Sequence record: DRR723986_8790
Direction: 5' to 3' (one strand)
Length of the DNA stretch: 37,250 nucleotides
Made by a program: the position numbers and the translations under genes. Positions 3,883 through 18,034 of the stretch are shown here, in pieces. The notes below the pieces were generated by a model. That model was not told the origin of the DNA. It saw only the letters and a list, made by a program, of their open reading frames with translations, and made no database searches. Positions within the stretch are counted from its first letter, which is position 1. Every line of letters starts with the position of its first letter.

Positions 3883-6800
3883 CTACTTCGACGCCCGCAG
3901 CTTTTCGAGCGTAGCCGTCACAGCGTCAAGCTGTTGTTCTAGGTCCGCGAGGGCAGCCTTTTCCTTTTCGACAACTTCAGCCGGAGCCCGAGCGACGAAA
4001 TTCTCATTTGAAAGTTTGCCCTTCTTGCCACCGATCTGCTTGTTCACATTCTCCAGCAGTTTCTCGTTACGTTTGATCTCGGCTTCGACATCAATGAACT
4101 GCCCCAAATCAACGGTAACTTGCATCGAATCGACGTTGATTTCTGCAGGCATTTCGGGCAGTGACAGGTCCGATCCCATTCCAGCACAATCAGCCTTTGC
4201 CAAAGACTTCAGGTAGGGCAGCATCGGTTCAAGCTGTGCGGCCGCTTCCTCTGTGCAACCAACTGTAAAACTAATTCGTTCTTTCGGGGGAATATTGTTC
4301 AGAGAGCGAATCTTGTTGAGGCCGCCAAGTACTGAGACGAACCGCGCAAATTGCGATTCGATCTCAGGATTCTGGTGCTCCTTCACCGCCGATGGCCAGC
4401 TCGATTGCATCAGCCATGGCTCCGTCTTCTGATCGGCTGACGCTGGAGCAAGAACGCGATCCGTCCCGAAAGCGGCCAATTCCTGCCAGATCGCTTCGGT
4501 AATGAAAGGTATGACCGGGTGCAGAAGTCGCAGCAATTGGTCCAAAGTGTGCGCAAGTACTTGCTGTACAACCGGACGCGTCGCGGCATCTTGCATCCGC
4601 GGCTTGGCTATTTCGACGTAGTAGCTACAGAACTCATCCCACGCGAAATCGTAGGCCGTCCGTACTGCGTCGGCATGCCGATACTCGTCAATCGCTTCGT
4701 TAACTTTCTCGATAGTCGTTGACAATCGAGCCAAAATCCAACGATCCTCCAAAGGCAGAGATTCGATTTCAAGCTCGGTGGGCGTGAAGCCTTCCAAGTT
4801 GATCATCACGAAACGAGATGCATTCCAAAGCTTGTTGCAGAAGTTACGCGCCGATTCAAAACGCTCGCTGGTCACCGCACCACGCGGATGCTTCGTATGC
4901 TCAGCCTCTTTGGCCCACTGCGTCGAGAACTCCTTGTTGCAACTCGAACACTGCACAACCGGTTTCTCACGATTCTGCTTCGTCTGGTTCATGCTAGTTT
5001 CGCAATGCGGGCAAACGAACTGGACCGGCATGCGAACATCTTGCGTTTCGGTGGCCAGCCAAGCGAGCCCGAACCGCAGCGCGTCGGCACCAAAGCGATC
5101 AATCACATCAATCGGATCGACGCCATTGCCCTTACTCTTGCTCATCGTTTCGCCATAACCATCGAGAATCTTCGGATGGATATAGACCTCGCGAAACGGA
5201 ACGTCGCCGACATTGTTCAAGCCGGCTAGAACCATGCGAGCAACCCACAGTGTGATGATGTCGCGACTGGTTATCAGAGTGCTTGTGGGATAAAAGTACT
5301 CAAGTTCAGGAGTCTTCTCTGGCCATCCGAGCGTCGAATGAGGCCATAACGCCGAACTGAACCACGTGTCCAGCACATCTTCTTGCCTTGTGTAGCCCCG
5401 CTGCTCGAGCATGTCGGCGGCATTGCCGTTTTCCAGCAAGCAAACATGAACCGTCGAAGGCTCTTGGATTTCGACACTGGCTCCGTCGGATAGCTCCGCC
5501 ACACTGCTCAGTTCAGAACGCTCTTGCTCTGCGTCTGCGGCAGAATCAAATTCACGGCTCCAGATTGGAATCTGATGTCCCCACCACAGTTGCCGTCCCA
5601 CTGGCCAGTCGCGTTTCTCACCGAGCCAATCTAAGTAGCCCTTTGCGTATCGCTCCGGAAAGATCTTAACTTTCCCGCTGGTAACGGCGTCCATGGCATT
5701 CTGTGCAAGCTGATCCATCTTCACGAACCACTGGTCCGCAAGGTAGGGTTCAATGGGTGTCTTACTGCGATCACTGTGAGCGAGATCAATCTCACGATCC
5801 TCAGTCTCAACCAGCAGTCCCTCAGACTCGAGGTCTTCAATGACTCGCACACGCGCCTTTTTCATCGTCAGTCCGGCATAGGAGCCCGCCTGTTCGTTTA
5901 GCGTGCCGTCGGTGTTGAGGATGTTGATCATCGGCAGGTCGCAACGCAGGCCCACTTCGTAATCGTTGGGATCGTGAGCCGGTGTGATCTTAACACAGCC
6001 CGAGCCAAGCTCTGGTTTTGCCCATTGATCTGCGACTAGTGGGATGGTGCGATCCGTCAGCGGCAAACGCAATTGCACGCCTCGCTTGGCCATTTCCGCT
6101 AGCTTGAGCAGCTCGGGCAGGTGCGTTTTTCTCCGCTCGGCCAGCGACTGCAATTGTGCTTCAAGCGCGTCGCGTTCCTTTTCCGCAGCGGATTCGAGCT
6201 TCTCACGCGTTGCCGCTTCAATTTTTTCAAGAGCTCGGGCTGGGTCGGGGTGAACGGCAACTGCCGTGTCGCCCAGCATCGTCTCAGGACGCGTCGTCGC
6301 AATCGTCACGAATTCCGGCTCACCGTCCGCCGGATCAATCACTGGGTACTTGAAATGCCAAAAATGACCTTTGACAACGGCGTGAAAAACTTCGTCATCG
6401 CTGACAGCAGTCTGTAAAAAGGTATCCCAATTGACCAATCGCTTTCCGCGAAAGATCAAACCTTTTGAGAACAGATCGAAGAACGTCGTTCGAACCGCTT
6501 TCGCGCAGACGTCGTCCAGCGTGAATCGTGTTCGTTCCCAATCGCATGAACACCCCATGCTTCGGAGTTGCCCGAGGATGCGTGTTTCGTATTCTTTTTT
6601 CCAATCCCAAATACGTTCCACCAGGGCTTCGCGGCCGAGATCGTGACGAGTCTTGTTCTCGTTTTCCTTCAGGCGACGTTCGACAACCGCCTGCGTGGCG
6701 ATTCCAGCATGGTCGGTCCCTGGCATCCAGAGCGCTTCGAAGCCGCGCATGCGGTGCCAGCGAACTCTAATGTCCTGCAGCGTATTGTTCAGCGCATGCC

Positions 6801-14792: not shown

Positions 14793-14821
14793 AGTTTACC
14801 GCCCTACTCAATACCCGTCGA
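14793..14821 (-). promoter_or_regulatory. candidate sigma70 promoter for aroF
   Basis: Minus strand reads TCGACG-N17-TAAACT. Confidence 0.4.
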
Positions 14822-14930
14822 GGCGTTATTTGCAGGCAACAGATCGGCCAACGGCAACCGACTGCCAATGCAACTGACCTTACTGTGTGAAAAGTTGAAC
14901 GATGTAGCACTAGAACGTGTCAATTGAGAG

Positions 14931-14960
14931 CATTTGGCAGCTTTTGCTAGTTGCCAAATG
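14931..14960. promoter_or_regulatory. inverted repeat / candidate operator overlapping the -35
   Basis: CATTTGGCAGCT-tttgct-AGTTGCCAAATG: 12-bp arms with one G/T mismatch. Confidence 0.6.
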
Positions 14961-14979
14961 TTCGACTCGTATTGATAAT
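14951..14979 (+). promoter_or_regulatory. sigma70-like promoter predicting a leaderless transcript
   Basis: TTGCCA-N17-GATAAT; the ATG at 14986 begins 7 nt after the -10. Confidence 0.6.
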
Positions 14980-14985
14980 GACTAT

Positions 14986-15402
14986 ATGGCAATCCACCGC
15001 ACCATTTTATCCTTGATCTTGCTGCTATCTGCGGCTGCTGGTCAAGCACCTTTGTGGCTTCACCAAGCCTCAGAGTGCTGTTCAGCGGTTCATGCCGGTG
15101 CGCCCGCGAACAGCGACGGCCAGGATGTCTCCGGCACTGGCTGCGATGAATGTTGCGAAGTTCGCGAAGTCTGTGCTTCGCCAGCCGCTGCCGTAGAAAC
15201 GCACCCGCTGCAGGTAGAGCCCAAGCAAATCCACGAGAGCTGCTTCTCATGCATGCAGCTTTCCCAAGTCGCCTCCGAGGCGGAAACTTGGTCACCTCTC
15301 TCAGTATCGCCTCTTGGCGTATTGGTCTGCTCGGTTGCTTCAAGCCGTGAATCTCTATTCGACGGTTTTTGTGTAGCGCGAGGCCCGCCCACTGCGGCCT
15401 AA
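14986..15402 (+). CDS. Cys/His-rich leader protein with C-terminal RGPP (DUF2946/CruR-like uORF)
   Basis: 138 aa: hydrophobic N-terminus (ILSLILLLSAAAG), ECC, CDECC, HESCFSC, ending VARGPPTAA*. Confidence 0.75.
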   Translation: MAIHRTILSLILLLSAAAGQAPLWLHQASECCSAVHAGAPANSDGQDVSGTGCDECCEVREVCASPAAAVETHPLQVEPKQIHESCFSCMQLSQVASEAETWSPLSVSPLGVLVCSVASSRESLFDGFCVARGPPTAA

Positions 15403-15532
15403 CTCTTTCGCTACCTAAATATCAGTGCTACTTGGCATCCCGCCGCGCCCTTCCTTGGTGTCTCGGCGTCATGTTTGTCAGTGCCGCTTCTCCCGCATGC
15501 AACCCACTTTTCGCATATACACAGACTCTCAA

Positions 15533-16480
15533 ATGAAGAATTCTATTATCCTGTCGCAGCATATTATCCGCCCTTCGCTGAAACGAAGCCGCGGCTTCAC
15601 GCTTGTCGAACTGCTCGTCGTCATTGCCATCATCGGCATCCTAGTTGGATTGCTGCTGCCAGCCGTTCAGGCAGCTCGCGAGGCGGCGCGTCGGATGCAG
15701 TGCTCGAGCAATATTCGTCAGTTAGGAATTGCTGTCCACAACTTTGAATCCGCTCATAAGAAGCTACCCTCCGGATTCACGTCGCATGGTACCAGTGGCG
15801 AACCAGGCTGGGGCTGGGCAACTTACTTGCTTCCATTCGCCGAGGGAGGCAATCTCTACAACAGCATCAATTTGGATGTCCCGATCGAAGAAGACATTCA
15901 CGCAATGCCTCGCAATACAGTCCTGTCGCTATTCGTCTGCCCCTCGGATCCATGGCCCAACCAATTTGAAATTGCCGAAGGCGATGGTCACGACCATGAC
16001 CATGATCACGACCATCTCTCTGACGGGTATTCCATGCGAATCGACGACGATGAACATAAGCTCTTCGAGGTTGCAAAGAGCAACTACGTTGGCATGTTCG
16101 GCACCTTCGAACTTGTCGATGCCCCATACAACGGCAACGGAATGTTCTTCGGAAACAGTCGACTGAAGTTTCGTGACGTTACGGATGGGCTTAGCAACAC
16201 GCTCATGATCGGTGAACGGAGTGGGCGATTGGGCGGCAGCATCTGGGCTGGCAATATTCCAGAAGCCGCCGAATCTTACGCACGGATCTTGGGAGTCGCA
16301 GATCACGGCCCCAACGAGCCTGATTCCCACTTTGAAGACTTTGGCAGCTACCACACCGGTGGAGTCAACTTCATGCGTGCCGACACCTCAACATTCTTCC
16401 TGCCCCAGACGATCGATCTTCAGGTGTATCAAGCGATGTCAACACGCGCTGGTGGCGAAGCTGCGTCGTATGTCGAATAG
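15533..16480 (+). CDS. DUF1559 (prepilin-type N-terminal cleavage/methylation) protein with His-Asp repeat
   Basis: [48 protein letters not shown]-terminal H-x9-D(T); HDHDHDHDH insert. ATG 15533 preferred over 15425. Confidence 0.93.
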
Positions 16481-16530: not shown

Positions 16531-16569
16531 AAAGGGTGAAGGCTCGATTTCGAGGCTTCGCCCTTTTTT
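16531..16569 (+). terminator. intrinsic terminator after the DUF1559 gene
   Basis: AAAGGGTGAAGGCTCG-attt-CGAGGCTTCGCCC followed by TTTTTT. Confidence 0.8.
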
Positions 16570-16831
16570 CGTAAGCTGATTCACCGTGGCCCCCAATTGG
16601 GGGCCCCTGAGGTAAGAATTGCGAGCCAAATGGGATTTGATGCGTAAGTGTGATAGAGGACACTGCGTCCAGAGTTGCACAGCGCAGTCCGTTTGGGCCC
16701 GTCTTGCCCAATCAAGTCGCCCGTTCGACTCGCACTAGACTGCCACCGCAATCGCACGACAATAACGCGGCACAGATAACGGTGCTCATTCCGCTCACCT
16801 TCATTCCCACCCATTTCCTGGACCTACCGAA

Positions 16832-18034
16832 ATGAAATCCCTCAAACTGACATTTGGAATTGCTGGATTGCTTCTGGCGTTTTCTGTCTTGCCGGGCTGT
16901 AACGATACGGCTGAAACTGCGCAGTCGGACACCGACGCTGCTACCAATTCCGAAGGCCAAGACGCGTCCGAGGGAATGGCCGATGCTGATTCGAATTCTG
17001 AAAAGTCATCGGAAATGGCAGGCTCTTCAAGCGAAGGCGGTACCAGCAAGGACGACAACAGTGGAGCAGCCGACGCTGAGTCTGACGAGCCAGCTTGGGT
17101 CGACAACAACGACACCAAGTACCTGACTCTGAAGTCCCAAGTCGGCCGAGCCACGGAAGCCTACATTCAAGTTCGAGCGATGACGGACGAAACCAATGCC
17201 GTTGACCTAGCAAACTTAGCAGGCGCTTCACAACAAGTCGCCGTTGCATTGATGCAGCAAGACAAAGAAGACGAAGCACTCGGCTTCCTGTTTCAATCTG
17301 GCGACCTGATGCGAGCTGCAGACAAGATCGGTGATGAACAACTGGTTGATCAATACTTTATGCAAGCTTACTACTTAGAAGGTGTAGGGCGTGCACTGAA
17401 CGGCGAGTTTGAGAAGGCGCTTGGGGCTTTTGACGATGCAGTTCAAAAGGGCTTCAATCAATTCGCTACACTCGAGGGAGATCCTGAGCTGGCTGACTTG
17501 CGCAGTTCCGATGGCTTCGACAAGCGACTTGCCGAGTGGAAGAAAATCGCCCTCGAACGTGAAGAAAAAGAGCTGGAAGCAGAATTGGCAAAGGGCAAGC
17601 TCTTCGACTTCGAACTTGCACGAAAGGACATCGACGGCAACGATGTCGACCTAGCTAGCCTCAAGGGTAAGGTAACGATCGTCGACATCTGGGGAACATG
17701 GTGCCCTCCATGCCGTGCAGAGATTCCGTCGTTCGTCAAACTGCAAAAAGAATATGGCGAAGAGGGCTTTCAAATGGTCGGCGTCAACTTTGAGCGTGGT
17801 CCGTCGGAAGAAGCGAACATTGCGGGCATCCGAGACATGATTGCCTCCATGGAAATCAACTATCCATGCACCTTGGGGGACGACTCAGTTCTTGAACAAG
17901 TTCCTAATTTTGAAGGCTACCCAACAACTCTCTTCATCGACAAAGCGGGCAACGTCCGCATGAAAGCTGTCGGTCTGCACAGCTACGAATATTTGGAGTT
18001 GGTCGTCAAGAAGCTTCTCGAAGAAGAAGTCTAA
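16832..18034 (+). CDS. TlpA-like thioredoxin lipoprotein with TPR-like region
   Basis: Lipobox LPGC, acidic linker, TPR-like YYLEG..AL.GEFEKAL, WGTWCPPCRAEIP, YPTTLFID..G. Confidence 0.9.
   Translation: MKSLKLTFGIAGLLLAFSVLPGCNDTAETAQSDTDAATNSEGQDASEGMADADSNSEKSSEMAGSSSEGGTSKDDNSGAADAESDEPAWVDNNDTKYLTLKSQVGRATEAYIQVRAMTDETNAVDLANLAGASQQVAVALMQQDKEDEALGFLFQSGDLMRAADKIGDEQLVDQYFMQAYYLEGVGRALNGEFEKALGAFDDAVQKGFNQFATLEGDPELADLRSSDGFDKRLAEWKKIALEREEKELEAELAKGKLFDFELARKDIDGNDVDLASLKGKVTIVDIWGTWCPPCRAEIPSFVKLQKEYGEEGFQMVGVNFERGPSEEANIAGIRDMIASMEINYPCTLGDDSVLEQVPNFEGYPTTLFIDKAGNVRMKAVGLHSYEYLELVVKKLLEEEV

Follow-up and report, generated by a model that had tools for sequence, protein, structure and literature searches.

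A candidate RGPP arrest peptide related to CruR precedes a prepilin-type DUF1559 gene

The leader ORF and the two-gene unit

The window analyzed here is a stretch of 37,250 nucleotides (nt) of the sequence record DRR723986_8790, and the region under study, positions 14986–16480 of its plus strand, carries a small open reading frame (ORF) followed by a gene for a prepilin-type protein of the DUF1559 family. The small ORF, an upstream ORF hereafter called the leader (ATG 14986 to TAA 15402, plus strand), encodes 138 amino acids (aa), belongs to a conserved family under selection at the peptide level, and is a candidate for a CruR-like arrest peptide with an RGPP motif. Its N-terminus (residues 1–20; 14986–15045) resembles an export signal by inspection, with a basic residue, Arg5, followed by a hydrophobic run of 11 residues and AAG/Q. 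The leader contains 10 cysteines, and these include the clusters ECC, CDECC and HESCFSC. The presumed sensor is the CxxC motif C86-F-S-C89 (15241–15252), which follows H-E-S and is invariant in three alignments of relatives. A stretch of 42 residues (15253–15378), fixed in length and free in sequence, connects the CxxC to the RGPP (residues 132–135; 15379–15390), which is encoded by CGA GGC CCG CCC and is invariant in the close alignments of the window ORF. Codons for Thr, Ala and Ala then lead to the stop codon TAA at 15400–15402. Among the 23 assigned genes of the window (8330 aa), the RGPP of the leader is the only occurrence of R[AG]PP or RAGP. A preliminary description of this DNA had named the 138-aa ORF, its signal-like N-terminus, the three cysteine clusters and the RGPP three codons before the stop, and all of these lie where it placed them.

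The leader is the first gene of a two-gene unit. It is followed by a spacer of 130 nt (15403–15532, plus strand), which is C-rich and G-poor and, by composition and folding, is a candidate Rho-loading region. The DUF1559 gene (15533–16480, plus strand) encodes 315 aa with matches to Pfam DUF1559 (PF07596; E = 3.9e-58) and to N_methyl (E = 7.5e-9); the latter corresponds to the prepilin-type N-terminal cleavage/methylation motif and hydrophobic helix (residues 17–42; 15581–15658). The tract HDHDHDHDH (residues 153–161; 15989–16015) is located in a surface loop, in a low-confidence part of the structural model, and no metal role is known for DUF1559. The unit is closed by an intrinsic terminator-like hairpin (16531–16566) with a U-run (16565–16570), together spanning 16531–16570 on the plus strand; the fold z-score of the 120-nt region is −2.34, and a simple scan misses this terminator because its stem has one mismatch. 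The earlier account of a DUF1559 gene with an HDHDHDHDH tract (ATG 15533), located 130 nt downstream and followed by a terminator, is confirmed.

A longer reading of the leader from GTG 14917 is unsupported, because the alignment of relatives begins at the methionine of ATG 14986. An antisense ORF of 179 aa (14804–15343, minus strand), which overlaps the leader and has no family evidence, most likely exists only because the coding strand is GC-rich.

Conservation of the leader family

With the single leader ORF as a query, a word-indexed protein search gave no match, and a scan of representative-genome contigs found no relative among 80 pattern matches; an exhaustive phmmer search against 1.84 billion representatives gave only two matches (E = 2.8e-14 and 1.1e-5). 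These two relatives share the N-terminal G-x-x-P-L-W-L-H, the CxxC and an RGPP located 2 residues before the stop. A search with a 9-sequence profile recovers 71 proteins at E ≤ 0.01. In the resulting set of 74 family proteins, the C-terminal motif is RGPP in 72 and RAPP in one; the single protein with neither, derived from a 438-nt contig, is probably cut. The motif ends 1–8 residues from the C-terminus, and the CxxC is located 42–45 residues upstream of it in 73 of the 74 proteins.

Family-profile searches covered 802 sampled genomes, 401 at the order level and 401 at the phylum level. A 3-sequence profile gave matches in 10 of the 401 order-level genomes (E ≤ 0.01), and a 27-sequence profile gave 34 places in 28 of the 401 phylum-level genomes (E ≤ 0.001). 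After four of these 34 places and the three weakest order-level matches (L029–L031, with in-frame stops) were left out, the locus set comprises 37 loci including the window. An ORF with a CxxC, a spacing of 42–48 residues and R[AGS]PP 1–7 residues before the stop is present in 36 of them; at the sole exception, L066, which lies at a contig edge, no complete leader ORF was seen. Across the 36 loci, the motif is RGPP in 28, RAPP in seven and RSPP in one, and the CxxC-to-motif spacing is exactly 43 residues in 22. Conservation of RGPP and CxxC in homologues, which the preliminary description had named as decisive for its proposal, is thus borne out both in the proteins (72 RGPP and one RAPP of 74) and in the genomic loci (36 of 37).

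The motif, the CxxC and the spacing are kept in relatives that are just 13–40% identical. All synonymous codons are in use at the motif across the loci (six for Arg, four for Gly and four for Pro), which argues that selection acts on the peptide. The mean column identity of the leader alignment is 22%, with poor conservation outside the N-terminus, the CxxC and the motif, and the stretch between the CxxC and the RGPP is conserved in length, not in sequence. The mid-leader region is rich in His and Cys, typically with H-D-C-x-x-C after His runs. By inspection, a basic residue and a hydrophobic stretch are present at the N-terminus of all 27 aligned members. As judged from this conservation, the leader is a real, conserved and translated gene.

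Relationship to CruR and DUF2946

CruR (Bp2923) of Bordetella pertussis is a DUF2946 protein in which a CXXC and a RAPP are located 45 residues apart, a distance conserved within 1–2 residues; only three residues follow the RAPP, the protein has an export signal, and a long spacer precedes the next gene (Roy et al., 2022, mBio, PMC9426467). More than 95% of the members of the DUF2946/CruR family have an export signal, and the signal peptide of CruR is dispensable (Roy et al., 2022). [quoted passage not shown] As shown by toeprinting in vitro, the ribosome translating CruR arrests when its P and A sites hold the two Pro codons (Fujiwara et al., 2025, EMBO J, PMC12992588). RGPP generally gives the most robust arrest, which is refractory to EF-P, and its occurrence in Planctomycetota is far below expectation (mean observed/expected ratio 0.15; Fujiwara et al., 2025).

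The window leader has the attributes by which R[AG]PP arrest peptides are recognized, i.e., a length below 300 aa, R[AG]PP near the C-terminus, a localization signal, and a position directly upstream of another gene. Its predicted arrest position places Pro134 in the P site, with Pro135 occupying the A site. Like CruR, it is the small first gene of an operon and has an export-signal-like N-terminus and an invariant CxxC. Both carry R-x-P-P three residues before the stop, a CxxC-to-motif spacing of fixed length (42 residues in the window ORF, slightly shorter than the 45 in CruR) and a long spacer to the next gene, in which a C-over-G region is a candidate Rho site. The comparison with CruR drawn in the preliminary description is therefore apt, given the spacing of 42–45 versus 45 residues, the motif three residues from the C-terminus and the long spacer. 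The two differ in that the motif is RAPP in CruR and RGPP in the window ORF, the literal CruR motif being rare among relatives of the latter (one of 74 proteins and seven of 36 loci). In addition, the downstream gene encodes a TonB-dependent transporter in CruR operons but a pilin-like DUF1559 protein here.

Placement of the leader relative to the Pfam model of DUF2946 (PF11162; gathering score 23.7 bits) gives a divided outcome. The window ORF has no Pfam or NCBIfam match at E ≤ 1, and PF11162 touched only one of nine leader-family members, with E = 4.3. Among the 34 family places in the 401 phylum-level genomes, PF11162 matches nine at E ≤ 0.01, and five of these reach the gathering score, including one leader that precedes a DUF1559 gene. 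When the family profile is compared by hhalign with five other planctomycete DUF2946 ORFs that pass the cut-off, the probability is 95.1% (E = 3.4e-8) and the match extends from the CxxC to the motif; these five ORFs are not found by the leader-family profile. In the ESM Atlas, where the stored family member P0005 and not the window ORF served as the query, 16 of the 30 nearest clusters are DUF2946 (score 0.95; 164 shared features), and the UniRef name of P0005 is DUF2946. The DUF2946 assignment thus fails for the window ORF itself (no match at E ≤ 1) and holds for part of its family, five of the 34 places passing the cut-off. Because of the PF11162 matches within the family, the hhalign result and the likeness in the Atlas, the window ORF is treated here as a divergent RGPP branch of CruR/DUF2946 arrest-peptide leaders, not as a Pfam-level member. 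PF11162 misses most of this branch, as 25 of the 34 profile-found places have no match at E ≤ 0.01, so that the number of such leaders is underestimated wherever a survey relies on it.

Genes downstream of the leader

In 21 of the 36 loci, the leader is followed on the same strand by a prepilin-type gene; 19 of these genes, including that of the window, exceed the Pfam cut-off for DUF1559, one falls below it (21.8 bits) and one matches N_methyl only. In ten loci, the next gene encodes a protein of 400–480 aa without a Pfam family, nine of these proteins forming one family by BLASTP; in four, it encodes DUF58 and heads a DUF58/transglutaminase/MoxR operon; and in one, it encodes a PEP-CTERM protein. 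The leader and its neighbor are always co-oriented, and no sec gene is found downstream of the leader in the 36 loci. As a control, 71 other DUF1559 loci, each with at least 700 nt of upstream sequence, were inspected, and such a leader precedes just one of them. These controls are generic paralogues with 27–56% identity, obtained by querying genome contigs with the window DUF1559 protein and metagenomes with three aligned orthologues. The sole control locus with a leader is on a metagenome contig (L131; 572–931, plus strand), and this leader has a RAPP end and a C-P-I-C motif; therefore, both the RAPP and RGPP forms precede DUF1559 genes.

At the two closest loci (L018 and L025), the DUF1559 orthologues are 71–72% identical to the window protein and carry a His/Asp-rich insert at the same site. 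Among the 16 aligned leader-linked DUF1559 proteins, such inserts are present in five, at two different sites; besides the window protein and these two orthologues, two more linked proteins carry one, at another position. The pairing of the leader with His-rich DUF1559 genes, as originally proposed, thus stands with regard to the prepilin gene (21 of 36 loci versus one of 71 controls) and is confined to a minority with regard to the His-rich tract (5 of 16). In a FastTree phylogeny of 22 linked and 84 control DUF1559 proteins, the linked proteins are located in pure clades of 9, 5, 3, 2, 2 and 1 tips. A single monophyletic clade of leader-linked proteins is not supported, since a 16-tip clade whose support is 0.0 contains 14 of the 22, the others being distributed over separate clades.

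The spacer, the start site and Rho

With 46 C against 23 G residues, the 130-nt spacer ranks among the top 0.5% of segments of its length in this sequence. In the 21 prepilin-linked loci, the spacers are 119–438 nt in length, and C is higher than G in 18, equal in two and lower in one. The fold z-score of the window spacer, +0.18, is no better than that of shuffled sequences, and the DUF1559 start region is predicted to be 0.66 unpaired with or without a stalled ribosome. When the footprint of the stalled ribosome is forced open in the 21 loci, the mean start accessibility is 0.486 versus 0.488 (change +0.001), and a shift larger than 0.1 occurs upward in one locus and downward in one. A hairpin that masks the start site and is opened by the stalled ribosome was rejected on account of this unremarkable folding and unchanged accessibility. 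Rho is found in all five related genomes inspected (G003, G352, G674, G627 and G052). Overall, the evidence on the spacer, the start site and Rho leans towards CruR-type Rho attenuation. Each of the same five genomes also contains a second Rho-like match (about 450–470 bits) below the rho cut-off, in addition to the true rho.

Likeness to known stalling leaders

CutF of Rhodobacter capsulatus is a DUF2946 protein with a CxxxC and a PPP-type stall motif that needs EF-P, in which metal prolongs the stall and thereby melts a stem-loop over the next ribosome-binding site (Ozturk et al., 2023, mBio, PMC9973294; bioRxiv 10.1101/2025.02.05.636593). Like CutF, the window leader is of the DUF2946 type, looks exported, and combines a cysteine motif with a proline stall motif at the C-terminus; cis control of the next gene by metal, a further likeness, is a prediction here. 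The two differ in their motifs (CxxxC and PPP-type in CutF versus CxxC and RGPP in the window ORF) and in the spacer, which is short and has a stem-loop in CutF, whereas thermodynamic folding, the only criterion applied, predicts no such stem-loop in the 130 nt of the window and, in the window as in 19 of the 21 loci, neither masking of the start nor its opening by a stalled ribosome. Neither CruR nor CutF is detectable as a stable protein (Roy et al., 2022; Ozturk et al., 2023).

The RAPP/RGPP peptides of Fujiwara et al. (2025), seven of which are from Streptomyces lividans, likewise are small secretory proteins whose C-terminal region carries R[AG]PP and whose downstream gene does not belong to the Sec pathway; the tested peptides, as described there, include no planctomycete one. 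In the source table of Figure 4B of that study, "DUF1559 domain-containing protein" is among the top 30 classes downstream of RAPP leaders, with 112 RAPP versus 68 AAPP cases (6.5-fold); DUF1559 is not mentioned in the main text. RAPP/RGPP leaders are also located upstream of DsbA-family, thioredoxin-domain and sec genes, and TonB-dependent receptors are the commonest class behind such leaders in proteobacteria (Fujiwara et al., 2025). SecM, ApdA, ApdP and ApcA resemble the window leader in their R-A/G-P-P-like C-terminal core, in the export of the nascent chain and in an arrest, predicted for the window leader, at which Pro-tRNA occupies the A site. They precede sec or yidC genes, however, whereas the window leader precedes a DUF1559 gene, translocation releases their stall by its pulling force, and they have no conserved CxxC at a fixed distance.

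A model for the leader and alternative explanations

We consider it quite probable that the leader is an arrest peptide which regulates the downstream gene in cis. A complete CruR-type scheme, comprising stalling, release by metal, Rho termination and expression when metal is scarce, is put forward more tentatively, its chance being a little short of even; we infer the stalling, the metal binding, the direction of the switch, the involvement of Rho and the role of the DUF1559 protein. In this scheme, a ribosome translating the leader would stall when Pro134 occupies the P site and Pro135-tRNA the A site. The CxxC would at that moment be about 45 residues back and, on geometrical grounds, just outside the exit tunnel, where it could bind a metal ion, most likely Cu or Zn. 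The stalled ribosome would cover the 3′ end of the leader and keep Rho off the 130-nt spacer, allowing RNA polymerase to enter the DUF1559 gene. When metal is bound by the nascent chain, the arrest would be released and the ribosome would terminate at UAA 15400; Rho would then load on the spacer and halt transcription ahead of the DUF1559 gene. The His-rich pilin-like protein would be made when metal is scarce and might serve metal capture or uptake at the envelope.

Several results weigh against this scheme, beginning with the missing DUF2946 match of the window ORF and the faint one in its family described above. The leader coding regions, too, contain more C than G (mean 0.32 versus 0.27), so that part of the spacer skew reflects strand composition, and in relatives the skew of the spacer is modest (mean C 0.30, G 0.25). 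Fifteen of the 36 leaders precede non-prepilin genes, and the leader is therefore not specific to DUF1559; moreover, 11 of the 16 leader-linked DUF1559 proteins have no His-rich tract. Some relatives adjoin efflux-type genes (OEP, HlyD and ArsP_1 permease), which would fit metal induction rather than repression. The neighbors in the window are housekeeping genes and one thiol-disulfide oxidoreductase, not metal genes.

The efflux-type neighbors lead to the alternative of a switch in the opposite direction, in which metal binding would delay export of the leader and prolong the stall, translation of the DUF1559 gene (or stability of its mRNA) would rise, and the protein induced by excess metal would buffer or export the metal. 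CutF, a DUF2946 protein, works in this way (Ozturk et al., 2023; bioRxiv 10.1101/2025.02.05.636593), and the export-signal-like N-terminus of the leader, the related loci beside OEP/HlyD genes and ArsP_1 permeases with a weak likeness to Cu/Zn efflux, and a His/Asp-rich loop that could sequester metal all agree with it. Yet no stem-loop masks the start (mean accessibility change +0.001 over 21 loci; fold z +0.18), and spacers of 119–438 nt are far beyond the reach of a ribosome. The cysteine motif is a CxxC as in CruR, not a CxxxC, and at about 45 residues from the peptidyl-transferase center the cysteines would be barely outside the ribosome, not across the membrane. We regard such a switch as rather unlikely. 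An arrest peptide that responds to a signal other than metal is less likely still: the CxxC would monitor the thiol/disulfide state or the capacity for export, the stall would be released by oxidation or by the pull of Sec, and the secreted pilin-like protein would be tuned to the folding or secretion capacity of the envelope. This idea draws on the RAPP/RGPP leaders upstream of DsbA-family, thioredoxin-domain and sec genes (Fujiwara et al., 2025), on the TlpA/ResA-like oxidoreductase encoded right after the window terminator and a DUF255 gene in one relative, and on the conserved cysteine pairs in most linked DUF1559 proteins. The His- and Cys-rich mid-leader region with H-D-C-x-x-C after His runs, however, suits metal binding; genes for ZIP, CobW-type GTPase and permease proteins recur as neighbors; and in CruR the CXXC senses copper while the signal peptide is dispensable (Roy et al., 2022).

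The leader might instead be a small secreted metal-binding protein, a chaperone or partner of the DUF1559 protein, with RGPP as a structural or sorting feature of no regulatory meaning. It is indeed conserved, exported-looking, Cys/His-rich and always co-oriented with its neighbor. Nevertheless, a mean column identity of 22% and a stretch of 42–45 residues that keeps its length but not its sequence are at odds with such a function, as are the avoidance of RGPP in proteomes and its proven strength as an arrest motif (Fujiwara et al., 2025). The same leader is found before unrelated gene classes, more in keeping with a regulator than with a dedicated partner, and CruR and CutF are not detectable as stable proteins. 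This possibility is very unlikely, and the reading of the leader as a cis-acting arrest peptide is retained.

Implications for DUF1559 and a possible role in metal acquisition

The idea of planctomycete CruR-type leaders before DUF1559 genes is less novel than the preliminary description assumed. "A few" planctomycete DUF2946 proteins are noted by Roy et al. (2022), whose Table S1 names some with no DUF1559 or RGPP in these entries, and the table of Fujiwara et al. (2025) also precedes the present analysis. The kind of leader was thus already known; what is new here is the divergent RGPP leader branch with a DUF1559 subclade as its putative target. CruR-type regulation would thereby be extended to a phylum and a pilin-like target class that appear in the published work cited above just as a row in a source table. 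DUF1559 is among the largest paralogous families in Planctomycetes, and the papers found to mention it, as judged by search listing and abstract, report neither a metal role nor regulation by a leader. A DUF1559 subclade behind a leader with copper-sensing relatives provides a testable condition, i.e., scarcity or excess of metal, and a genetic handle.

A TonB-dependent receptor barrel (PF00593) is found in just one of the five related genomes named above, which are 6–8.6 Mb in size. This scarcity fits a metal-uptake role for the planctomycete leader targets, without showing it. Against the background of the four genomes in which no TonB-dependent receptor was found, it is conceivable, albeit doubtful, that the DUF1559 subclade and the unnamed family of secreted proteins of about 450–480 aa constitute an envelope metal-acquisition device of planctomycetes, switched by a CruR-type RGPP peptide. 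If this is the case, the leader would switch them in the manner of proteobacterial TonB-dependent copper or zinc receptors, and DUF1559 pseudopilins would be metal-capturing fibers or pistons, not parts for adhesion or secretion.

Further features of the DUF1559 protein and a promoter-like site

The H-X9-DG model (TIGR04294) scores 14.3 bits on the window DUF1559 protein, under its cut-off of 19; the corresponding H274 and D284 are present, and they are invariant in the 16 leader-linked proteins. Most leader-linked DUF1559 proteins have conserved cysteine pairs. An AF2 model built from a 100-sequence alignment has a pLDDT of 88.6, and an earlier model from 16 sequences (pLDDT 58.7) was discarded. 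The HD tract is a disordered loop in the retained model, with pLDDT below 50 at residues 153–159 and 166–170. A Foldseek search of this model against the PDB gave nothing at E ≤ 0.001, with only the pilin N-terminal helix matched; a wide structure search (VIA) ranks type IV pilins and pseudopilins highest, although with weak scores (Z = 3–4.9).

A promoter-like sequence, TTGCCA-17-GATAAT (14951–14979, plus strand; 10 of 12 matches), ends 6 nt before the leader ATG. The region holds two promoter-like sites against 1.4 expected, so this is weak evidence. A leaderless or almost leaderless mRNA, suggested by the distance of 6 nt, was dropped as a candidate because the site has no consistent counterpart in relatives.

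Gene neighbors of the leader

At one of the two closest orthologous loci (L156; G352:C136), a gene for a ZIP-family metal transporter with His-rich loops (5304–6353, minus strand) is divergent to the leader. A CobW-type GTPase gene and ArsP_1 permease genes are located near the leader in loci of other relatives, these permeases having a weak likeness to a Cu/Zn efflux family. Such neighbors, like the His-rich loop of the window protein, are no more than suggestive of a part in metal homeostasis. Just after the terminator in the window, a gene at 16832–18034 (plus strand) encodes a TlpA/ResA-type protein of 400 aa that combines a lipoprotein-like N-terminus with an acidic linker rich in Ser and Asp, a TPR-like stretch and, at the C-terminal end, a thioredoxin domain with a CxxC (Redoxin, E = 3.7e-17; the ResA and TlpA models are below their cut-offs). 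AhpC_TSA-type genes are among the partners of CruR operons (Roy et al., 2022), and in one relative a DUF255 thioredoxin-like gene follows the DUF1559 gene.

The proteins encoded after the leader at L053, L058, L059, L063, L064, L065, L067, L068 and L069 form the single BLASTP family mentioned above, of about 430–480 aa, with a signal peptide, a coiled-coil-like start and no Pfam or NCBIfam family. One of them weakly resembles a siderophore porin model, at a score under the threshold, and the family may represent an outer-membrane channel under the control of the same leader.

Three genomes contain two leader-headed modules within a few kb of each other (L152, G674:C1:5524000-5543900; L153, G627:C20; L154, G052:C61). 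In the first module, the leader is followed by genes for DUF58, a transglutaminase-like protein and a MoxR AAA ATPase, and in some cases by an ArsP_1 permease gene; in the second, it is followed by the DUF1559 gene, in some cases a beta-propeller gene, and genes for proteins of about 135 aa and about 470 aa. L154 has an additional leader, located upstream of Flp/Tad pilus genes, and a CobW-type GTPase gene adjoins.

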